Shown one piece after another: positions 3,792 to 18,317 of a stretch of 64,000 bases of DNA. Origin of the DNA: an uncultured Chitinophaga sp. (GTDB taxonomy: Bacteria > Bacteroidota > Bacteroidia > Chitinophagales > Chitinophagaceae). The position numbers were made by a program, and so were the translations under genes. Each line of letters starts with the position of its first letter. The first letter of the stretch is position 1. The notes under the pieces are model-generated. The model did no database searches and had not been told where the DNA came from. It worked only from the letters and a program-made list of their open reading frames with translations. The DNA lies in the NCBI RefSeq assembly GCF_937898475.1, contig NZ_CALEJS010000032.1, positions 115,841-179,840 of the forward strand, written 5' to 3'.

Positions 3792-4159
3792 AACCAATCC
3801 GTTTATATCTGGTTCAGTTCATCGTTCGCAGTTGCAGGCAGGTAAACTAACCGTCTGCACTGAAGTTCAGCACAGGCTGGTTATACAGTAGGATGACAGT
3901 TGCAGGTGTATAGGAATCACAACTGACAGCGTTAAAAATGCACAATAACTATGCCCCCGTTGTTGGTCTAAAGGTACGATTTCAGCAAAATAACCTTATA
4001 AATTTTTCCTGTCAGCGTAACATCCGCGTTTGCAAAGCCGTTATAAAACAGTTGTTCTTTTAACCATATTTTTTACTTAATATGCAAACCGTTTCCGTAT
4101 GAAAAACTGATACCCTATAAATACATTTCTTTTTTCTTAACCATTAAACCCAAATTGGT

Positions 4160-4327
4160 ATGCAACCCAACAACCAAGCACAGAAACCCTTCTTTGCGAA
4201 GTTCCTGGAGAACCAGGCCAACGCCAAGGTAACTACCGCCCAACAGGAAGCCGGCCTTACCGCTGAACAGGCTGAAAGCCAGACCACCCTGAAATTCCCT
4301 TCTGACTGGGATGAAGAAGACTGGTAG
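4160..4327 (+). CDS. Graspetide (microviridin-type) precursor peptide 1, 55 aa
   Basis: Hand translation: MQPNNQAQKPFFAKFLENQANAKVTTAQQEAGLTAEQAESQTTLKFPSDWDEEDW*. The leader motif is PFFAKFL (consensus PFFARFL). The core TTLKFPSDWDE is almost identical to the microviridin B core TTLKYPSDWEE. It is below the 60-aa cutoff of the ORF track and lies directly upstream of two ATP-grasp genes. Confidence 0.85.
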   Translation: MQPNNQAQKPFFAKFLENQANAKVTTAQQEAGLTAEQAESQTTLKFPSDWDEEDW

Positions 4328-4402
4328 TCTTCATTGGCAATTCTTATTGTAGCATGGCAGCTATAGCTGCATTTTCTTTAACAATTTAAATCACATTTAA
4401 GT

Positions 4403-4570
4403 ATGCAACCCAACCAAGAACTCCAAAAGCCCTTCTTCGCTCAATTCCTGGAATCACAAGCCAGCAATGCGCAACCGCTTACGTCCATCGTTACCGGTAG
4501 AATTGTAGACCATCCCGGTGATGTAACCCAGAAGTTTCCTTCTGACAATGACGAAGAATGGGATTTCTAG
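4403..4570 (+). CDS. Graspetide (microviridin-type) precursor peptide 2, 55 aa
   Basis: Hand translation: MQPNQELQKPFFAQFLESQASNAQPLTSIVTGRIVDHPGDVTQKFPSDNDEEWDF*. It shares the MQPN start with precursor 1 and has the PFFAQFL leader motif and the core TQKFPSDNDEE. It is a paralogue of precursor 1. Confidence 0.85.
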   Translation: MQPNQELQKPFFAQFLESQASNAQPLTSIVTGRIVDHPGDVTQKFPSDNDEEWDF

Positions 4571-4593
4571 TTCCATAAGACTATTCTGGATAA

Positions 4594-4628
4594 CAAGCAA
4601 TAGCCACCGCGCTATTGCTTGTTTTTAT
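4594..4628 (+). terminator. Rho-independent terminator/attenuator between precursor genes and ligase genes
   Basis: A perfect 11-bp stem, caagcaatagc / gctattgcttg, flanks the loop caccgc and is followed by ttttta. Confidence 0.6.
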
Positions 4629-4638
4629 TAATACCACC

Positions 4639-5613
4639 ATGATACTTTGTATTACCCATTCGCAGGATCATTATACCATTGACCTGGTACAACAGCACCT
4701 GGACAAGCTGGGATACCCTTCCTGGCGCTTTAATTCAGACACCTTTGGTACCAGCTGCAACATTCGCTACACGCTGGATCAGGGGCCTGCCCGGCTGCGC
4801 CTGCATCAGCAGGGCCGCAGCATCCATGCGGCAGACATCAGCGGCGTATGGTACCGCAAACTGTGGGCGCTGAATACCCCTCCCCAACTGGATGCAGCAT
4901 ACCTGCCTGTATTTAACAAGGAATATAATACCACCCTGCATATTTTCCTGGACGCGCTCAGCCATCAGCCCTGGATAAATAAAATAGCGGCTGATCATGC
5001 CGTTTGCAGCAATAAGTTATGGCAGCTGGATGCCGCACAGCAAAGCGGTCTTACGGTACCGGCTACACTTTTTAGCAACCAGGGCGACGATGTACGCACC
5101 TTTTATGAACAGTGCCGGGGCAACATTATTATGAAACTGCACGGCGCCCTTAGCAGGAGCATGAGCGGCAGCGGCGCGTTCTTTCCCACTACACGTGTTA
5201 CCGAAGCTGCCCTTACACAGCTGGATACGCTGGCCTACTGCCCTATGATATTCCAGCAGCAGGTGCCTAAAGCGTATGAGCTGCGTATTGCCTATGCAGA
5301 TGGCGCCTTTTATACCGGTAAGATCAACGCTGTACAGGATGCGAAAGGGCAGACAGACTGGCGCGCGGCCAACGCACAACTGCCCTGGGAGCCCTATGAA
5401 CTGCCGGCCTCCATACAGGAAAGCATATACGTTCTTATGCAGCGGCTGGACCTCAGCTTTGGCGCTATTGACATGATACGCCGGCCCGATGGGGAATATG
5501 TGTTCCTCGAAGTAAACCCCCAGGGCGAATGGGGTATGCTGCAGAAATACCTGGGCTATCCTATTGCAGAAACTATCGCAGAAAAACTCGTAAACAAGAT
5601 TCAACATGGCTAA
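4639..5613 (+). CDS. ATP-grasp ribosomal-peptide maturase (MdnB/MvdC-like, tentative)
   Basis: The track ORF is 4615..5613, and I prefer the ATG at 4639 (MILCITHSQDHYTIDLV, typical of the microviridin ligase N-terminus ...THSQD...). C-terminal ATP-grasp blocks are present: ELRIAYADG, DWR, SFGAIDMIRRPDGEYVFLEVNPQGEW. Its stop overlaps the next gene start. Confidence 0.85.
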   Translation: MILCITHSQDHYTIDLVQQHLDKLGYPSWRFNSDTFGTSCNIRYTLDQGPARLRLHQQGRSIHAADISGVWYRKLWALNTPPQLDAAYLPVFNKEYNTTLHIFLDALSHQPWINKIAADHAVCSNKLWQLDAAQQSGLTVPATLFSNQGDDVRTFYEQCRGNIIMKLHGALSRSMSGSGAFFPTTRVTEAALTQLDTLAYCPMIFQQQVPKAYELRIAYADGAFYTGKINAVQDAKGQTDWRAANAQLPWEPYELPASIQESIYVLMQRLDLSFGAIDMIRRPDGEYVFLEVNPQGEWGMLQKYLGYPIAETIAEKLVNKIQHG

Positions 5614-6598
5614 AGAAAAGGTGATCATATTAACGCATTCGGCAGATAATATATCCGTAGATACCGTCAGCCGGTTTGTAAAAGAAGCCGGCGGCGAAGT
5701 GATACGGTTCAACGTAGATCAGTACCCCCTGCATAACCGGCTCAGCTCTGTTTACCGGAACGGCCAGCAGGAGATAATGCTGGAAAATGAAAGCGGCCTG
5801 CATACTCTGCACGATGCCGCAGGTATCTGGTACAGGCGGAGCTATAACATTGGCAAAGGCCTGGAACAATTCATAGATAAAGAGTTTCTGCCGGCTACCC
5901 TGCAGGAAAGCAAGCGCACCTTATTTGGCATGATAGAAGGCCTGGATATATTCCAGCTGGAAAAATACAGCGTGTACCGCCGGCTGGACAGTAAGGAAGA
6001 GCAGCTGCGTATAGCCGCAGCCTGCGGACTGAACATCCCCGCCACCTGCATCAGCAACGATGCGGCAGTAATACGCCGTTTCATCCGCTCGGTAGATGCG
6101 CCGGTGATCACCAAAATGCAGAGTGCTTTTGCCATCTATCGCGGAGGCGAGGAACATGTGGTATTTACCAACACCGTTGACGAATCTCAGCTGGAGGAGT
6201 TAGACAACGTGCAGTACTGCCCCATGGTATTCCAGGAAAGAATAGAAAAGCAGCTGGAGCTGCGCATCAATATAGTAGGGCATGCCATCTTTGCTTTCAG
6301 CGTTAACTCTGCGGTGTCAGACCGTTCAGCTACCGACTGGCGTAAAGACGGGGCTGCCCTGATAAACAGCTGGGAGCCCTATGAACTGCCCCAGGATATT
6401 CAGCAAAAGCTGCTGGCCTTTATGGATGTATACGGCCTGAACTACGGAGCGATCGATCTGATCCTGTCGCCAGACAACCGGTATTATTTCCTGGAAGTGA
6501 ATGCCGCCGGGGAATATTTCTGGCTGGACAAGCTTTGCGATCATGCCATTTCCCGGCAGATAGCGCATGTACTAACAGGCAAAGCCAGCAGGCGGTAA
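5606..6598 (+). CDS. ATP-grasp ribosomal-peptide maturase (MdnC/MvdD-like, tentative)
   Basis: MAKEKVIILTHSADNISVD..., ITKMQSAFAIY, QYCPMVFQERIEKQLELRINIVG, DWRKDG, NYGAIDLILSPDNRYYFLEVNAAGEYFWL closely resemble the MdnC/MvdD sequence as I recall it. An 8-nt ATGGCTAA overlap with the upstream ligase suggests translational coupling. Confidence 0.88.
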   Translation: MAKEKVIILTHSADNISVDTVSRFVKEAGGEVIRFNVDQYPLHNRLSSVYRNGQQEIMLENESGLHTLHDAAGIWYRRSYNIGKGLEQFIDKEFLPATLQESKRTLFGMIEGLDIFQLEKYSVYRRLDSKEEQLRIAAACGLNIPATCISNDAAVIRRFIRSVDAPVITKMQSAFAIYRGGEEHVVFTNTVDESQLEELDNVQYCPMVFQERIEKQLELRINIVGHAIFAFSVNSAVSDRSATDWRKDGAALINSWEPYELPQDIQQKLLAFMDVYGLNYGAIDLILSPDNRYYFLEVNAAGEYFWLDKLCDHAISRQIAHVLTGKASRR

Positions 6599-6620
6599 AA
6601 CTGATTCAAATAGTGTATTT

Positions 6621-7118
6621 TTGCTATCCATCGTGAATGTCAGAGCATACATAGATAGTGGGGCGGTAGAATGCTATCTGCTTGGCCTGGCCAGCGCGGA
6701 AGAAGAAGCGCTGCTGCAGCAAATGCTGCGTTTATACCCTGAGCTGGAGTCTGAGATAGCTGATACGGCTTACAGGCTGCAGGAAGCGGCTATGGAAGGG
6801 GGCATTCAGCCACCCGGTGAAGTATGGGATAACATTGCCCGCGAACTGCAGCGCGACGAACGGGAAGCCCGGCGGCAGCAACGATGCCGCCGCCAAAGCG
6901 ATGAGCCTGCCTATACGGTGATCAACCTGCAGCAAACACCATCCAACAGGTATATACAGGTCAGCATTTGGTGGCGTTGTGCCTTTATAGCCCTCTGTAT
7001 GCTGGTGATGGCGCTATTGGCCAGCAATATCTATTTTTACCGGAAGTACCATGAAATGGAACAGCGGGTATTACAGCCGCAACCTTCCAGCCAGTCTGCC
7101 CCCGCTTCAACAAAATAG
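6621..7118 (+). CDS. Anti-sigma-factor-like single-pass membrane protein (orphan, RskA-like N-terminus)
   Basis: The N-terminus YIDSGAVECYLLGLASAEEEALLQQMLRLYPELESEI resembles Bacteroidota anti-sigma N-terminal domains. One TM helix is visible (WWRCAFIALCMLVMALLASNIYF). The start is uncertain: TTG at 6621 or in-frame GTG at 6633. No sigma gene is adjacent. Confidence 0.55.
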   Translation: MLSIVNVRAYIDSGAVECYLLGLASAEEEALLQQMLRLYPELESEIADTAYRLQEAAMEGGIQPPGEVWDNIARELQRDEREARRQQRCRRQSDEPAYTVINLQQTPSNRYIQVSIWWRCAFIALCMLVMALLASNIYFYRKYHEMEQRVLQPQPSSQSAPASTK

Positions 7119-7195
7119 CCCGCAGGGATGTTTAATTGGTATATTTCTTGCTTTTGCACTTATCTCAGAAGCTATTAAAATTTAAACCATAACAG

Positions 7196-7699
7196 ATGAA
7201 GATGAGAAATCTTACACTGGCAACATTATGCCTTATCGCAGCATCCCTGTTTGCCGTTTCATGCGCTTCTTCTTCGGGCGCTACCAGCGCTGCTATCTCC
7301 AAGGGCAGTGTTACCGGCAACTGGGTGATAACTGATATCCAGTTCGAGGGAATACCGGAAAACAGTAAAGTAACGGTATTTGATGAGGCTTCCTATAGCT
7401 GCTTCCAGGGCAGTAACTGGGTGTTACCGTCTAACGGTAAAGGTTCTTACACGCTGTCATCCACTTCAGATGGCTGCAATACAGTATCGCAGCCTATTAT
7501 GTGGTCGCTGTACAAACAGGCCGGCGGCACCATGTTCCAGTTCAAGAAACTGTCTGAAGGCATAAAGGCAAAGAACGTAACAGAAGGTTACCGGGTAGAG
7601 TTGAGCTCCGCAGATGGGAACAGCATGGTGTGGAGAGCGCCGGTGAATTTTGAAGGCAAGAGCGCTTACATTGTATATACACTGCAGAAAAGCAGATAA
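7196..7699 (+). CDS. Lipocalin-like-domain lipoprotein, function unknown
   Basis: Signal peptide plus lipobox (LFAVSC). GNWVITDIQFEG is typical of small lipocalin-like lipoproteins. Confidence 0.6.
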   Translation: MKMRNLTLATLCLIAASLFAVSCASSSGATSAAISKGSVTGNWVITDIQFEGIPENSKVTVFDEASYSCFQGSNWVLPSNGKGSYTLSSTSDGCNTVSQPIMWSLYKQAGGTMFQFKKLSEGIKAKNVTEGYRVELSSADGNSMVWRAPVNFEGKSAYIVYTLQKSR

Positions 7700-7721: not shown

Positions 7722-7763
7722 AAAAGGTGAGGTGTACTCAGTACGCCTCACCTTTCATTTTTT
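7722..7763. terminator. Bidirectional intrinsic terminator between convergent genes
   Basis: The long stem aaaaggtgaggtgtac / gtacgcctcaccttt has loop tca and is followed by a T-run on the + strand. It overlaps the last codons of the LysR gene on the - strand. Confidence 0.65.
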
Positions 7764-8821: not shown

Positions 8822-9082
8822 TCAGCTTTTCTTAGCGGCGTCTTTATTAGACTTATAACGCATATCCGGCGTGCCGTCTTTTTTTACCGGGCCTTTGATG
8901 GTTGTTTTGTTCACCTTATACCTTTTATCCGGTGTACCATCTTTCTTCAGCGGTTTATTGGCCGCCGTTGTTTGCTCGGTTCTGTTCTTTTTACCGGCAG
9001 ATCTCTTTTTCTCCTGCGCCTGTACCATTGATATGGAGGCACTTATAAGCAAGATCAGGATACCGGTGAGCAATCTTTTCAT
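8822..9082 (-). CDS. Small secreted lysine-rich protein with two KKDGTPDxRYK repeats
   Basis: The track ORF is 8822..9115, and I prefer the ATG at 9082 (MKRLLTGILILLISASISMVQAQ signal peptide). The mature part is highly basic, with the duplicated motifs KKDGTPDKRYK and KKDGTPDMRYK, reminiscent of 'PBCV-specific basic adaptor'-type repeats (from memory). Confidence 0.55.
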   Translation of the reverse strand: MKRLLTGILILLISASISMVQAQEKKRSAGKKNRTEQTTAANKPLKKDGTPDKRYKVNKTTIKGPVKKDGTPDMRYKSNKDAAKKS

Positions 9083-9156
9083 CAGAACATGATATTTTAG
9101 AAAAGTAAGATACATAATAAAAAGTATTTTCCACGCAAAAACACGTAGAAATACGC

Positions 9157-11453: not shown

Positions 11454-12314
11454 ATGTTACACAAAGGTATTGACATACCCTATCAGCACCTGCCTTTTAC
11501 GGGGCAGTTCAATATCTTTCAGCTGGATACCTTCAAAAATGAGTTGGCCCGACTCCCTCACCGCCACGACCATTTCCAGGTGATCTGGTTTACCCGCGCC
11601 CGTGGGCAGCATATCGTTGATTTTGTGTCTTATGAACTGCAGGACAATATGCTTTTCCTGCTGCAGCCAGGCCAGGTGCATCAGTTGCTGGACTGCGGCA
11701 AAGCGGGCCATGCCATCACCTTTACTGAACAGTTCTATTTCAGCAACCGCCGCGAGCGGGAAACGATATACGACTTTACCAATCTCTTTGAATGTTACGA
11801 TGGCTATGCTCCCATCCGTATCAGCCAGCGCACCGCCGCCTCCCTGCAGCTGTTGGCAGAGCTGATGTACCGGGAAAAAAGCGGTTCCGGCAGCCGGAGC
11901 ATCATCAAACATTACCTCAGCGCCTTCTTACTGCAGGCTGAAAGGGAGAAGAAGCGGAATGCCGCCCAGGCCATTGCTCCCCTGCAGGGAGACGCCCGTA
12001 TTGTACACCTGCGCCAGCTGCTGGAAAAGAATTTCCGTGCGCAGCACCAGGTTGGTTTCTATGCCAATGCCTTTGCCCTCACCCCCAAGCGCCTGAACGA
12101 GATCACCCGCGAGAAAACCGGTAAAACCGTAACCGACCTGCTGCATGACCGCCTGGTGCTGGAAGCGAAACGGAACCTCTCCTTCAGCAAAAAAAGCATT
12201 AAAGAGATCAGCTACGAGCTGGGGTTTGAAGATCCCGCCTATTTCAGCCGCTTTTTCAAAAACCACACAGGGCTGGGCCCCCAGGAATTTCGTGGCGCGG
12301 CAATCAGCAGGTGA
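11454..12314 (+). CDS. AraC-family transcriptional regulator
   Basis: The C-terminal double HTH (FYANAFALTPKRLNEITREKTGKTVTDLLHDRLVLEAKRNL...ISYELGFEDPAYFSRFFK) follows an N-terminal cupin-like domain. Confidence 0.9.
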   Translation: MLHKGIDIPYQHLPFTGQFNIFQLDTFKNELARLPHRHDHFQVIWFTRARGQHIVDFVSYELQDNMLFLLQPGQVHQLLDCGKAGHAITFTEQFYFSNRRERETIYDFTNLFECYDGYAPIRISQRTAASLQLLAELMYREKSGSGSRSIIKHYLSAFLLQAEREKKRNAAQAIAPLQGDARIVHLRQLLEKNFRAQHQVGFYANAFALTPKRLNEITREKTGKTVTDLLHDRLVLEAKRNLSFSKKSIKEISYELGFEDPAYFSRFFKNHTGLGPQEFRGAAISR

Positions 12315-12565
12315 TTGAACCAGCTGCCGGCGGTTGGCTGTTAGCTGTTACGGCTGATTTTTTTCTATGTTCAAATAGTACAAGTATATAGGTGTTTTGT
12401 CCAACCTAGGGTGATGGGCCGCGGCTAACTTTGCGACAGTTAAAAGAAGTGAAGTGGCTGGTGATTAACCCGGGTCTTCAGCATAACGTCATTGCGAGGA
12501 GCTATAGGGAAAAAGTGAAGAGCGCGACGAAGCAATCTTTTAACAAATAACTGCTATATCACTGC

Positions 12566-13981
12566 ATGAATACCGCCAAACATCTTTGCCTGATACTCAT
12601 CGCCGCCGGAGGCTTAATCCCCCCGGCGCGGGGGCAAACTGCGGTATTAACCCTGCAGGAGGCCTTGCAAACGGGTCTGCAGCGCTATCAGTCTATCCAG
12701 GCCAAAGAAAGCTACGTGCGTGCAGCAGCAGAAAATATCAGCGCCGTTAAACGGGAATACCTGCCAGACCTTAACCTGAACGCCCAGAACAGTTATGGTA
12801 CCATCAACGGGCAAAACGGTCCGTTCTGGGGTTATAAAGGCTGGACCACCGGCGCATCTGGTCAGCCGCTACCCACACAGAACTGGAACGCCGCCTTCGG
12901 CGGACTATACCTGGCCAACATCTCCTGGGACCTCGTCACCTTTGGCCGCCAGCAGGCTAAAGTGGCGCTGGCGAAAGAGCAGCATGCCGCCAACACTGCC
13001 GACCTGGAGCAGGAACGCTTTGAACACCAGACCCGCATTGCGGGCGCTTATCTTAACCTGCTGGCGGCACAACGCCTGCGCGCCTCCATGGAAGCTAACC
13101 TTCGCCGTACGGAAGCGCTGCAGCGTATGATCGTGACCCGGGCGCTCAACGGGCTGAACGCCGGGGTAGACAGCAGCATTGCCAACGCAGAAGTATCCAG
13201 GGCGAGGCTTTCGCTGATAGACGCACAGAACTACGAAGCCGCCCAAAGCAACAAACTGGCGGAAATGATGGACGTACCGCCGCAGTCTTTTACGCTGGAC
13301 ACCTTTTTTGTGGCCCGCATCCCGCCAGAGATGATGCAGCCCGCCGCCACAGATTCCGTACTCAAAGAACAGCCCTTACTGCGTTTATACCAGCATCGCA
13401 TCCTGCTCACAGAAAGCAACCGCCGCCTCATCAGCAGGAATGTAATGCCCCGGCTCAGCCTTATGGGCGTATTACAAACCAGGGGCTCCGGTTTTGCAGC
13501 CGATTACGGCGCCGCTACTGCCGATAAGGATCATTTCAGCCAGGCCTGGTGGGACGGTGTGCATCCTACCCGTACCAACTACCTGCTGGGCCTTAACCTT
13601 TCCTGGACGGTTACCGACCTGCTGCGCACACATGCGCAGGTGGCCAGGGAAACCCATCATGCTGCAGGCTTGAAACATGAATACAGCCAGGTATACAGCC
13701 GGCTGCAGCATCAGCTGCAACTGGCAAATGAACAGCTGCACAATGCAGTGCGCAAATACGCGGAAGCACCGCTGGGCGTAAAAGCCGCCGCAGACGCTTT
13801 TCTGCAGAAAAGCACCCTGTATGAGAACGGCCTTTCCAATATTGCAGACCTGGCGCAGGCGCTATACAATATCAATCGTGCAGAAACGGACCGAGACCTG
13901 GCATACAACGGTGTATGGCAGGCGCTTTTATATAAGGCAGCGGTAACCGGAGATCTGAACATTTTCTTGAACCAGCTATGA
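12566..13981 (+). CDS. TolC-family outer membrane efflux protein
   Basis: 471 aa with a signal peptide and the two-repeat OEP architecture (LTLQEALQTGLQRYQSIQ...). Its stop overlaps the RND start (ATGA). Confidence 0.88.
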   Translation: MNTAKHLCLILIAAGGLIPPARGQTAVLTLQEALQTGLQRYQSIQAKESYVRAAAENISAVKREYLPDLNLNAQNSYGTINGQNGPFWGYKGWTTGASGQPLPTQNWNAAFGGLYLANISWDLVTFGRQQAKVALAKEQHAANTADLEQERFEHQTRIAGAYLNLLAAQRLRASMEANLRRTEALQRMIVTRALNGLNAGVDSSIANAEVSRARLSLIDAQNYEAAQSNKLAEMMDVPPQSFTLDTFFVARIPPEMMQPAATDSVLKEQPLLRLYQHRILLTESNRRLISRNVMPRLSLMGVLQTRGSGFAADYGAATADKDHFSQAWWDGVHPTRTNYLLGLNLSWTVTDLLRTHAQVARETHHAAGLKHEYSQVYSRLQHQLQLANEQLHNAVRKYAEAPLGVKAAADAFLQKSTLYENGLSNIADLAQALYNINRAETDRDLAYNGVWQALLYKAAVTGDLNIFLNQL

Positions 13982-16900
13982 ACTTGATCAGGATAGCCTT
14001 ACAGAAACCTATATCCGTTCTCGTGATTGTGATCGGCCTGCTTTTCTTTGGCATTAACTCCATGCGGGATATCAGGATCGACATCTTCCCCGATCTGAAC
14101 CTGCCTGCGATCTATGTATCGCAGCCCTACGGTGGAATGTCGCCACAGCAGATGGAAGGGTTTATCTCTACCAACTACCAGAACCTGTTCCTGTACGTAA
14201 CAGGTATCAAGGCTATTGAAACCAAGAATATTCAAGGGTTAACCATGCTTAAGCTCACCTTCTATGAAGGTACCAACATGGCCCAGGCAGCGGCAGAGGT
14301 AACGGCAATGGCTAATCGTGCATTTTCATCAATGCCGAGCGGTACTCAACCACCGTTCATTATCCGTTTCGATGCCTCTACGCTGCCTATCGGGCAGTTG
14401 GCGCTGAGCAGTCCAACCCGCAGCAATAATGAATTACAGGACCTGGCCATGACGGTAGTACGCCCTTCGTTCTCCCGTGTGGCGGGCCTTACCTCACCAG
14501 CCGCCTTTGGCGGTAACAACCGTACGGTGGTGATACGGGTAGACCCGGTACTGATGCGTAGCCACCACCTTACACCCGACCAGATCGTTGCAGCGGTAAA
14601 AGATAATAACCAGATCTCGCCTGCAGGCAATGTGCGCATTGGCGATGTCACCTACCTCACCCCCAGCAATACGGTGATCCGGCAGATCAAAGACTTTGAA
14701 AATATCCCGCTCCTGATGGGAAGCGGCCCTTCCGTATACCTGCGGGATGTTGCCCGCGTAGAAGACGGCGCAGACATCACCAGCAGCTACGCCGTGATCA
14801 ATGGCAAACGTTCTGTATACATGCCCGTGATCAAAACCGCCAACGCTTCTACCTGGTCTGTAGTAAAGAACCTCAAAGCGGCATTGCCCGATATCCAGCA
14901 GCTGCTCCCGGAAGATGTAAAAGTGATCTTCGAATTTGACCAGAGCAGGTACGTGGTAAATGCAGTGAAAAGCCTGATCAGCGAAGGGGTGATAGGCGCC
15001 GTATTAACAGGCCTTATGGTGCTGCTGTTCCTGGGCGACCGGCGCAGCGCGCTGATCGTGATCATTACCATACCCGTATCCATCATCATCGGGGTAATGG
15101 GACTAAGGCTTGCCGGGCAAACCATCAACATCATGACGCTCAGCGGCCTGGCCCTCGCCATCGGCATCCTGGTAGATGAATCTACCGTTACCATAGAGAA
15201 CATCCACCAGCACCTGGAAATGGGCAAACCCAAAGCAAAGGCCATCTGGGATGCCTGTAAGGAGATCGCTTTTCCCAAACTACTGATCCTCCTTTGCATA
15301 CTGGCTGTGTTTGCGCCTTCCTTTACCATGAAAGGCGTACCAAGATCCATGTTCCTGCCCCTGTCGCTGGCCATTGGCTTTTCCATGATCGCATCTTACC
15401 TGCTGTCGCAAACCCTGGTGCCTGTATTATCCAACTGGATACTGAAGCCGGAGAAATTCAGCAGGCATCATGTAAAGGCATCATCCGCCACCGGCAGTAA
15501 AACAGACGCGTACATTGAAAAAGAGTTGCATTATGAACAGGAACATGTGCAACAGATCTCCCGCTTTGAAAGGTTCAAACTCCGGTTTATGTCCCGCCTG
15601 GAAAAGCTGATGCTGCGGCGTAAACCTGTTACCATCATTTACCTTGCAGGGATAGTGGCCATCGTAGTGGTATGTTTCAGCGTCATCGGGCGAGACATCC
15701 TTCCCAAACTCAATAACGGGCAGTTCCAGCTGCGGCTCAAAGCCCGCGAAGGCACACGCCTGGAACGTTCAGAAACCATGCTGCTGGATGCGGTAGCAGT
15801 GCTGAAGGAAGTGGCGGGAGAAAAGAACATTGATATCACTTCTTCTTTCATTGGCACCCATCCTTCTTCCTATTCAACCAGTCCCATCTACCTTTTCATG
15901 GCAGGGCCTAATGAGGCGGTAATGCAGGTGAACCTGAAAGAAGATTACAAGGTAAATATGGACGACTTCAAGGAACGCCTGCGTAAACGTATCCACTATC
16001 GCATGCCGGATGTAAAGATGAGCTTTGAACCCATAGACCTTACCGATAAAGTAATGAGCCAGGGTGCAGCCACACCCATTGAGGTGGCCGTAATGGGCAA
16101 GAACCTGGAGCAGAGCAAACCCTTTGCGCAGAAGCTGCTGGCGGAAATGAAGAAGATCCCCTACCTGCGTGATGTACAGATTGTACAGCCGCTGAACTAC
16201 CCCGCCATCCGTATCAATATTGATCGCGAAAGGGCAGGGCAGCTGGGCGTGAGCATCACAGAGATCGCAAAGTCGCTGACCGCTGCTACCTCTTCCAGCC
16301 GCTTTACGGAAAAGAACAACTGGCTGGATGAAAAAAATGCTACCGCTTATTTTGTGCAGATCAGCATACCCGAAAATGAAATGAGCAGCATGAACGATAT
16401 GGCCGCTATTCCAATCTCGAAAGACAGAACGCGTCCGCTGCTGGGGGATGTAGCTACCCTGCAACCGGATACCGTTGCCGGAGAGTATGATCGCGTAGGG
16501 GCAGTACGCATCATCTCCATCGGCGCCAATGTGCACAAGCAGGACCTTGGACAGGCCAGCAATGATGTAGATGCCGCCATCCAGCGGGCAGGCGAGCCGC
16601 CCAGGGGCATCAAGGTGGAAAAGCGCGGCCTTACCCAGTTGCTGGATGAAACCCTGGGCAGCCTGCAATCAGGCCTGCTGGTAGCAGCTGTTGTGATACT
16701 GTTGTTACTGGCCGCCAACTTCCAGTCCTTTGGCGTGGCGCTGGTAGTAGTAAGCGCCATTCCCGCCGTACTGGCCGGATCGCTGATCATGCTGCTGTTA
16801 ACCGGTTCTACGCTCAACCTGCAATCGTATATGGGCATGATCATGTCTGTAGGCGTATCCGTAGCCAATGCCGTATTGCTGGTAACCAATGCAGAGAAGC

Positions 16901-17202
16901 TGCGGATGGAGAATGGCAACGCCCTGAGGTCGGCCATGGAAAGCGTATCCATCCGCCTGCGGCCTATCCTTATGACCACCATCGCGATGGTAGTGGGCAT
17001 GATACCCATGGCCAGCGGCCTGGGTGAAGCCGGTGATCAGACAGCGCCGCTGGGCCGCGCCGTAATTGGCGGCCTGATCGCTTCCACATTTGCCACCCTG
17101 CTCATATTACCGCTGATATTTGCCTGGGCGCGGGAGAAAGCGGGCACCCGGTCAGTTTCGCTGGACCCGGAAGATGTGAACAGTCAATACTATTATCAAT
17201 AA
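13978..17202 (+). CDS. RND-family efflux transporter permease (AcrB/HAE1-like)
   Basis: 1074 aa. The start [25 protein letters not shown], the 12-TM/2-loop architecture and [17 protein letters not shown] are typical of RND pumps. Confidence 0.93.
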
Positions 17203-17207
17203 CAACA

Positions 17208-18317
17208 ATGCAACAAACTACACATACATATCTGTGCCTGATCGGTGCGCCGCTGCTGATGATGATGGCGTCCTGCAACGGGTCTCACGCGGAAGAGGAA
17301 ACGAAGGAGGTGCAGACGGCTGTGCAGGTTAAAACGCTGGTACTGCAAAAGAGCCGGCTGGAAAATTCGCTGAAGCTGCCGGGAGAGATCAAGCCCTTCC
17401 AGTTTGCAGACCTCTACGCTAAAGTGAACAGCTATGTGAAAGAGGTGCAGGTAGACCTGGGCAGCCAGGTAAGCAAGGGACAAATACTGGCCACACTGGA
17501 AGCGCCTGAAATGAACAGCCAGCTGCTGGGCGCCCGGTCCCGTTTGCACACCCGCGAAGCCGTGTTCAGGGCCAGTAAGGCTAACTACGAAAGGCTGCTG
17601 CGTACCAGTAAAGTGCCCGGTACCATATCTCCCAACGACCTGGACCTGGCCCTTTCTAAAATGAGTGCAGACAGCGCAGAACTGCTGGCCGCCCGCTCTG
17701 CCTACCAGGAAGTGCAACGCATGCTGGACTACCTGGTGATACGCGCCCCCTTCAGTGGTGTGATCAGCCAGCGTAACGCGCATCCCGGTACGTATGTGGG
17801 CCCCGGAGCCAGGAGCGCAGAGCTGCCGATGTTCCGCCTGGAAGAGCAGTCTAAACTACGTTTGGCCGTAGCCGTACCCGAAGTATATACAGGCGGTCTG
17901 CAGCAGGCGGGAGAAGTGCGCTTTACCGTAAGATCACTCCCCGGCGATACCTTCAGGGCCCGTGTAGCACGTGTGGCCGGGAGCCTGGACACCAGACTGA
18001 GAACAGAAACGCTGGAAATGGACATCAGCAATAAGGATAAGCAACTGCTGCCCGGTATGTATGCAGAAGCGCTGCTGCCCCTGCCCGGGAAACAGGATGT
18101 ATATGTAGTGCCTAAAAGCGTGATCGTAAGCAATTCAGAAAAAGTCTTCGTGATCAGGATAGTTAACAATCAATCCAGGTGGGTGCCTGTAACGCGCGGC
18201 AATGAATACAACGGAATGGTAGAGATATTCGGTGGGCTCAATGACCAGGACGTACTGGTAAAAAACGCCAGCGACGAGATCAAGGAAGGCACCCCCTTAC
18301 AGGCAGTAAAAGAATAG
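17208..18317 (+). CDS. RND efflux periplasmic adaptor (membrane fusion protein), lipoprotein
   Basis: Lipobox MMMASC. Biotinyl-lipoyl-like and beta-barrel segments are present (VSKGQILATLEAPE..., IRAPFSGVISQRN). Confidence 0.9.
   Translation: MQQTTHTYLCLIGAPLLMMMASCNGSHAEEETKEVQTAVQVKTLVLQKSRLENSLKLPGEIKPFQFADLYAKVNSYVKEVQVDLGSQVSKGQILATLEAPEMNSQLLGARSRLHTREAVFRASKANYERLLRTSKVPGTISPNDLDLALSKMSADSAELLAARSAYQEVQRMLDYLVIRAPFSGVISQRNAHPGTYVGPGARSAELPMFRLEEQSKLRLAVAVPEVYTGGLQQAGEVRFTVRSLPGDTFRARVARVAGSLDTRLRTETLEMDISNKDKQLLPGMYAEALLPLPGKQDVYVVPKSVIVSNSEKVFVIRIVNNQSRWVPVTRGNEYNGMVEIFGGLNDQDVLVKNASDEIKEGTPLQAVKE

Follow-up and report, generated by a model that had tools for sequence, protein, structure and literature searches.

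Organisation of the cassette

The 64,000-nucleotide stretch of DNA analysed here (the window; positions 115,841 to 179,840 of contig NZ_CALEJS010000032.1, assembly GCF_937898475.1) comes from an uncultured Chitinophaga sp. and carries four plus-strand genes, encoding two short precursor peptides (A1 and A2) followed by two ATP-grasp ligases (Table 1), which very probably form a biosynthetic cassette for microviridin-class graspetides. A preliminary description had read these genes as a cluster in the order A-A-B-C, and both the gene order and the reciprocal assignment of the two ligases agree with it. With its own upstream region included, the cassette extends from approximately 3805 to 6606, or about 2.8 kb.

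Table 1. Coordinates of the cassette and of neighbouring features in the window.
Feature	Position	Strand	Remarks
Upstream noncoding region of the cassette, presumed promoter/regulatory region	3805-4159	+	Divergent intergenic region, shared with minus-strand lpxR
preA1, precursor peptide A1	4160-4327	+	55 amino acids; RefSeq WP_298739456.1; sequence MQPNNQAQKPFFAKFLENQANAKVTTAQQEAGLTAEQAESQTTLKFPSDWDEEDW
preA2, precursor peptide A2	4403-4570	+	55 amino acids; RefSeq WP_298739458.1; sequence MQPNQELQKPFFAQFLESQASNAQPLTSIVTGRIVDHPGDVTQKFPSDNDEEWDF
13-bp stem-loop followed by TTTTTATT	4592-4629	+	Between preA2 and the first ligase gene; terminator-like site
MvdC/MdnB-type ATP-grasp ligase (first ligase, ORF3)	4639-5613	+	324 amino acids; best match TIGR04185
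MvdD/MdnC/CdnC-type ATP-grasp ligase (second ligase, ORF4)	5606-6598	+	330 amino acids; best match TIGR04184
Orphan anti-sigma-like membrane protein gene	6621-7118	+	Weak NCBIfam matches, 27-29 bits; no adjacent sigma factor gene
Lipocalin-family lipoprotein gene	7196-7699	+	3' of the anti-sigma-like gene
Terminator-like hairpin, 15 bp	7723-7755		After the lipocalin gene

Precursor peptides

Both small open reading frames (ORFs) that had been proposed as precursors are present, with the expected leader motifs (PFFAKFL in A1 and PFFAQFL in A2, residues 10-16 in each) and TxKFPSDxDE cores lying in the segments TTLKFPSDWDEEDW and TQKFPSDNDEEWDF. A six-frame scan of the whole window for PFFxx[FLYM][LIVM] returned these two genes only. 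Their assignment as microviridin/marinostatin precursors is borne out by NF033738, the curated NCBIfam model for the 'microviridin/marinostatin family tricyclic proteinase inhibitor' (48.3 bits for A1 and 45.1 for A2, cut-off 26), and by PF12559 (Inhibitor_I10), whose cut-off of 21 bits is passed by A1 with 35 bits and only narrowly by A2 with 21.6 bits. The expectation that ordinary gene callers would miss genes of this size was mistaken, since both are called by RefSeq, under the same name as the NCBIfam model, and by JGI, under less specific names. Exact copies of all four proteins are held in RefSeq as 'uncultured Chitinophaga sp.' (WP_298739456.1, WP_298739458.1, WP_298739461.1 and WP_298739463.1) with correct names, the second ligase going by the broader 'MvdC/MvdD family ATP grasp protein'.

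All ring donors and acceptors of the tricyclic cage are present in both peptides (T43, K45, S48, D49, D51 and E52 in A1; T42, K44, S47, D48, D50 and E51 in A2). The A1 core is laid out as T43-L-K45-F-P-S48-D49-W-D51-E52, for which two esters (T43-D49 and S48-D51) and one amide (K45-E52) are predicted. A2 reads T31-GRIV-D36, followed by five residues and then T42-Q-K44-F-P-S47-D48-N-D50-E51; because it carries the extra TxxxxD lactone motif, a tetracyclic product is predicted, with T31-D36, T42-D48 and S47-D50 esters and a K44-E51 amide. The products had been described as tricyclic, which is probably incomplete for A2. Computed monoisotopic masses are 1283.58 for the tricyclic A1 core TTLKFPSDWDE and 2254.04 for tetracyclic TGRIVDHPGDVTQKFPSDNDE from A2.

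In an alignment of 13 precursors from eight loci, P10, F11, F12, F15 and L16 of the leader are invariant, together with a Glu and a Gln. In the core, T, K, P, S, D and D are invariant and the following residue is either D or E, so that every predicted ring donor and acceptor is conserved. The TxxxxD motif, a conserved feature of A2-type precursors, is kept in seven Chitinophagaceae precursors.

ATP-grasp ligases

The two genes that follow overlap by 8 bp (5606-5613) and encode the THSQD/THSAD, ELRI, DWRK and YGAIDLI...YFLEVN motifs from which they had been recognised as ATP-grasp ligases. Their assignment is reciprocal: the first ligase scores 377.1 bits with the MvdC model TIGR04185 (profile positions 1-317 of 318) against 228 bits with the MvdD model, and the second scores 414.7 bits with the MvdD model TIGR04184 (positions 1-320 of 321) against 261 bits with the MvdC model. 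PF21068, the MvdD-type pre-ATP-grasp domain, is matched with 107 bits in each. Solved structures follow the same division, the first ligase scoring 244 bits with AMdnB (7m4s), 219 with MdnB (5ig8), 167 with MdnC (5ig9) and 143 with CdnC, and the second 379 bits over 327 residues with CdnC (7mgv), 250 with MdnC (5ig9), 178 with MdnB (5ig8) and 155 with AMdnB. A RimK or glutathione-synthetase-like identity was rejected, the rimK_fam scores of 38 and 32 bits (cut-off 143) being at least tenfold below the MvdC/MvdD scores, and the earlier identification as MdnB/MvdC and MdnC/MvdD enzymes stands.

From these family relationships the first ligase is predicted to be the omega-amide (lactam) ligase joining Lys to Glu. 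The second is predicted to be the omega-ester (lactone) ligase and is probably also responsible for the additional TxxxxD lactone of A2. The two paralogues share about 30% identity, and eleven related loci each have one orthologue of each ligase, with 42-84% identity. The most likely start of the first ligase is ATG 4639, giving 324 residues, and not TTG 4615, because the latter lies inside the 13-bp stem-loop and both RefSeq and JGI give the 324-residue form.

Residues S194, Q195 and E198 of the second ligase align with the contacts E191, D192 and N195 of MdnC. Across the window and the eleven related loci described below, a small sample that is confounded by phylogeny, the variable residue of the PFFAxFL leader seems to co-vary with the MvdD-like residue aligned to MdnC D192: loci with leader Arg or Lys mostly have Asp at this position and loci with leader Gln mostly have His. 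In the window, one leader has Lys and the other Gln, and the ligase residue is Gln.

Related loci and selection

A scan for relatives, with one genome per species, found 11 loci, hosted by Chitinophaga, other Chitinophagaceae, Olivibacter, Pseudosphingobacterium and a metagenome-assembled genome of the Roseivirgaceae. In nine of them a single MvdC-like gene and a single MvdD-like gene come after one to three intact precursor genes; of the remaining two, one (L004) is cut off upstream and the other (L005, Paraflavitalea speifideaquila) is decayed. No GNAT, ABC/C39 or peptidase gene recurs beside the module in nine other loci, and in other genera its flanks are mutually unrelated (dapD, a fucosidase, a LytTR two-component system, a glyoxalase-type protein).

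The cassette genes are evidently under purifying selection: compared with Chitinophaga japonensis DSM 13484, the ratio of nonsynonymous to synonymous substitution rates (dN/dS) is 0.14 for A1, 0.14 for the MvdC-like gene and 0.09 for the MvdD-like gene. These low ratios, at near-saturation of synonymous sites, indicate that the small precursor ORFs are real genes.

Several relatives show features of their own. At the Paraflavitalea locus (5215-7408) the MvdC-like gene is broken up across three reading frames, and the precursor ORF retains the leader PFFAQFL and has lost the TxKxPSD core; the MvdD-like gene appears intact. In Olivibacter domesticus (L008, 7051-8855) the module is followed immediately on its 3' side by genes for a histidine kinase (His_kinase family) and a response regulator of the LytTR type; such pairs often control peptide-based signalling or bacteriocin loci. 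The MvdD-like ligase of Olivibacter sp. CPCC 100613 (L010, 6001-7140) has 385 residues, about 50 more than its relatives, and its alignment takes 379 columns for 330 query residues, which suggests that it carries an insertion.

Noncoding elements

The stem-loop between preA2 and the first ligase gene has a folding energy of -18.6 kcal/mol (z = -5.1), and none of 200 shuffled sequences folds as well. A stem-loop occurs at the equivalent position in all ten loci that have this intergenic region (the window, L001-L003 and L006-L011), with z at or below -3.5 in eight of the ten. The counterpart in C. japonensis (L001, 4987-5024) has stems identical to those of the window. Stem sequences vary among lineages and several loci have no clear T-run. 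The structure is presumed to be a leaky terminator or a stabilising hairpin that would hold precursor mRNA in excess over ligase mRNA, an arrangement familiar from operons for other ribosomally synthesised and post-translationally modified peptides. The differences in stem sequence among lineages amount to compensatory change, and in loci without a T-run the stem-loop may be a stabiliser or processing site, not a terminator. A small hairpin after A1 (4357-4370) was dropped as a part of the cassette, not being conserved in C. japonensis. No Rfam family was matched anywhere in the window.

In the upstream region, two-species footprinting with C. japonensis delimits two conserved blocks, 4038-4087 and 4131-4165. 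A promoter is presumably present between 3805 and 4159. Sites of the sigma-70 type are no more frequent than chance predicts (5 against 5.4 expected), with none of them upstream of A1, and the Bacteroidetes promoter pattern (-33 TTTG / -7 TAnnTTTG) has no match in this region.

Genomic context

The cassette is a presence/absence unit within Chitinophaga, since nucleotide homology with Chitinophaga agrisoli stops at about 3804 and restarts at about 6607, with no graspetide remnants at the C. agrisoli locus (window 3805-6606 compared with L013 5026-5445). There the order is helicase, lpxR, anti-sigma-like ORF, lipocalin, lysR, ispG, araC-type regulator and outer-membrane efflux gene, that is, the order of the window minus the four-gene module. 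In Chitinophaga filiformis and Chitinophaga sp. HK235 the cassette site holds an extracytoplasmic function (ECF) sigma factor gene and a second anti-sigma-like paralogue. The G+C content of the ligase genes (0.51-0.53) equals that of the surroundings, which rules out a foreign composition of the cassette.

Further out, a minus-strand UvrD/PDDEXK helicase of 1056 residues (JGI call; 1-2735) runs past the start of the window, and two ORFs on the plus strand (429-1181 and 1704-2369), for which no family model gave a match, are probably not genes. On the other side, an AraC-type regulator, an outer-membrane factor, an AcrB-type RND pump and a membrane-fusion protein form an efflux operon (11454-18317, plus strand) about 5 kb from the cassette; it is probably unrelated, because the araC-type regulator and the efflux outer-membrane gene are also present at the module-less C. 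agrisoli locus. A small, basic, secreted-looking protein with two KKDGTPDxRYKxNK repeats is encoded on the minus strand at 8822-9115, and a similar-sized gene takes this position in the C. agrisoli, C. filiformis and HK235 loci.

Interpretation and alternatives

We conclude with high confidence that the locus is an intact, minimal group 1 microviridin-class graspetide cassette of the Bacteroidota chitinoviridin/FR901451/chryseoviridin subtype, in an uncultured soil Chitinophaga. Direct support comes from its gene content, the family assignments, the conservation of ring residues, purifying selection and orthology to the C. japonensis locus. The mechanism proposed here is based on the established step order in microviridin biosynthesis (PMC7823629); the ring chemistry, the sequence of steps, the ligase responsible for the extra ring, the function of the hairpin and the protease targets are all inferred. 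The two precursors would be translated each with an N-terminal leader bearing the PFFA(K/Q)FL recognition helix, which both ligases would recognise. The MvdD/CdnC-type ligase would phosphorylate Asp side-chain carboxylates with ATP to form the omega-ester rings, in A1 first Thr43-Asp49 and then Ser48-Asp51, and in A2 Thr42-Asp48 and Ser47-Asp50 plus the extra N-terminal Thr31-Asp36 lactone. The MvdC/MdnB-type ligase would afterwards close the Lys-Glu lactam (K45-E52 in A1 and K44-E51 in A2). The leader, and probably also some C-terminal residues, would be trimmed by proteases encoded elsewhere. The caged peptides would then bind serine proteases in a substrate-like manner, with the residue between Thr and Lys as P1: Leu44 in A1, for which an elastase-type specificity is predicted, and Gln43 in A2, as in chitinoviridin A2A. 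Through the conserved stem-loop that follows the precursor genes, precursor transcripts would probably outnumber ligase transcripts.

Several points weigh against this conclusion. The locus is known from its sequence alone, and neither the sigma-70-like nor the Bacteroidetes-type pattern located a promoter upstream of A1. No GNAT acetyltransferase, ABC/C39 transporter or peptidase gene lies within about 10 kb on either side, so that maturation and export are left unexplained by a leader peptidase, exporter or N-acetyltransferase in that interval. Both ligases fall short of the equivalog cut-offs (377 against 425 bits for TIGR04185 and 415 against 475 for TIGR04184), which is a failed feature of family membership and no argument against the mechanism. 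The spacer between TxxxxD and TxK has five residues in A2, compared with three in the chryseoviridin motif. Finally, the C. japonensis locus is presumably the published chitinoviridin cluster, an equation supported by the strain name, by the presence of two precursors and by the TxxxxD motif.

One alternative concerns the number of rings in A1. This peptide has TxxxxE (T34-AEQA-E39) instead of TxxxxD, with the same spacing and at the position aligned with the A2 motif, and TAEQAE is unchanged in nine of nine close variants while neighbouring positions vary. A Thr34-Glu39 lactone would give A1 a fourth ring and make it tetracyclic, unlike chitinoviridin A1 or FR901451. This is unlikely, and was rejected as the principal account of A1, because the Thr/Glu pair is not conserved in the distant A1-type precursors P0027, P0028 and P0031, where Thr is replaced by Ala or Val or Glu by Lys; C. 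japonensis A1 also has Ala at the Thr position, and the acceptor is Glu whereas every A2-type motif has Asp.

Very unlikely is a cassette that is silent or decaying, its genes intact in appearance with no mature inhibitor made. The missing peptidase, transporter and acetyltransferase and the lack of a located promoter would fit such a state, as would the visible decay at the Paraflavitalea locus (a frameshifted MvdC-like gene and a precursor without its core) and the absence from C. agrisoli, which marks the cassette as dispensable. However, none of the four ORFs is truncated relative to its profile, the ring residues are all conserved, and dN/dS stays at 0.09-0.14 while synonymous change is near-saturated. 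Moreover, as described in PMC13039773, the orthologous C. japonensis strain yielded characterised products and a cluster-encoded protease is missing from many graspetide clusters.

The intact cassette could also be thought of as tied to its downstream neighbours. The anti-sigma-like gene begins 22 bp past the last ligase gene with no terminator before the hairpin that follows the lipocalin gene, making read-through of the graspetide operon into this pair possible, and the cassette occupies the exact site of the ECF sigma factor gene of related Chitinophaga. In this lineage, read-through might then have tied the cassette functionally to signalling at the envelope, perhaps through an effect on the regulated proteolysis of the anti-sigma protein; we give this proposal scarcely any credence. 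Functional coupling was largely rejected on the grounds that the pair is syntenic without the module in C. agrisoli and that the flanks in other genera are unrelated; the anti-sigma-like and lipocalin genes exist independently of the cassette and hence are not part of it.

The chance that the products are bicyclic and marinostatin-type, with two esters and no lactam, is close to negligible: the core ends in PSDxDE, as does that of marinostatin (PSDSDE) and unlike the PSDWEE typical of cyanobacterial microviridins, but none of the 13 precursors lacks the Lys of TxK and an intact MvdC/MdnB-type amide ligase is under evident purifying selection.

Comparison with known systems

The cyanobacterial clusters mdnABCDE and mvdABCDE (Microcystis and Planktothrix) share with the window the PFFARFL-type leader helix, the TxKxPSD core and two paralogous ATP-grasp ligases, which align over their full length to MdnB and MdnC and have the amide ligase gene first. 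The window cassette differs in having neither the GNAT acetyltransferase (MdnD/MvdB) nor the ABC transporter (MdnE/MvdA). In addition, the Tyr of KYPSD is replaced by Phe and the second ester acceptor is Asp instead of Glu. Lys or Gln stands in place of the leader Arg, and at the positions aligned to the MdnC contacts E191, D192 and N195 the second ligase has S, Q and E. Marinostatin, from marine gammaproteobacteria, is covered by the same NF033738 and PF12559 models and shares the PSDxDE ending of the core. It is bicyclic with Arg in place of the lactam Lys, in contrast to the window, where the lactam Lys is accompanied by an amide ligase.

Class III microviridin precursors (Ahmed et al. 2017) are distinguished by a double-glycine (GG) motif and a C39-peptidase transporter, according to PMC13039773. 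Neither window precursor contains GG and no C39/ABC gene lies nearby; A2 shares one class III trait, a long core with the microviridin motif at the C-terminus only.

Closer to the window is the chryseoviridin (cdn) cluster of Chryseobacterium gregarium, with the ligases CdnB and CdnC and the precursor motif TxxxxDxxxTxKxPSDxD[DE] (PMC8939145). CdnC (7mgv) is the best solved match of the second ligase, and both systems have a core of the TxxxxD...TxKxPSDxD[DE] type and several tandem precursor genes. The cdn cluster also has a multicore precursor, of which there is none in the window, and flanking alpha/beta hydrolase and epimerase genes (PMC8939145) that are absent around the window cassette.

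The closest counterpart is the C. japonensis DSM 13484 locus (L001; NZ_VLLG01000002.1, 1,530,698-1,543,687), which belongs to the same genus and has the same order of A1, A2, MvdC-like and MvdD-like genes with two precursors. It also has the same insertion site between lpxR and the anti-sigma-like gene, and the same neighbours from lpxR through ispG. Identities to the window are 76% for the MvdC-like ligase, 84% for the MvdD-like ligase and 71% and 69% for the precursors; the two are different species, as the 84% identity of IspG and the near-saturation of synonymous sites show. The A1 core is TTLKFPSDWDEEDW in the window and TTLKFPSDWDDADWG in C. japonensis, and because the cores differ the predicted lactam acceptor is Glu in the former and Asp in the latter; the variable residue of the A1 leader PFFAxFL is Lys and Gln, respectively. 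The A2 sequences, TGRIVDHPGDVTQKFPSDNDEEWDF in the window and TGKLIDAPGGDVTQKFPSDGDEEWDI in C. japonensis, both keep TxxxxD and TQKFPSD. For the tricyclic C. japonensis A1 core TTLKFPSDWDD the computed mass is 1269.567, corresponding to C60H79N13O18, which we take to be also the formula of FR901451. Two microviridin-like peptides, chitinoviridins A1 and A2A, were reportedly described in the study of FR901451 biosynthesis by Wang et al. (2022, ACS Chem Biol 17:3489).

Both chitinoviridins have been characterised from C. japonensis DSM 13484, as stated in PMC13039773, which cites Wang et al. Chitinoviridin A2A is tetracyclic, with an extra N-terminal lactone derived from TxxxxD in addition to the tricyclic cage, and inhibits elastase at 0.29 uM and chymotrypsin at 8.7 uM (PMC12848669). 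The motif of the corresponding 'class 2' subclass is TxxxxD-xn-TxKxPSDx(D/E)(D/E) (PMC12848669), and window A2 conforms to it, having TxxxxD N-terminal to TxKxPSDx(D/E)(D/E). The window cassette is an ordinary find, an orthologue of a characterised cluster that is already annotated publicly and departs from it at no more than some residues of the cores. The class, the subtype, the enzyme structures and a close orthologue have all been described, and the locus opens no new testable question. Its practical value is modest. The cores differ from the chitinoviridins at several positions, among them the lactam acceptor of A1 and variable residues around both ring systems, and would contribute two natural variants to structure-activity studies of inhibitors of elastase and chymotrypsin. 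With only four genes, the cassette would also be easy to express.

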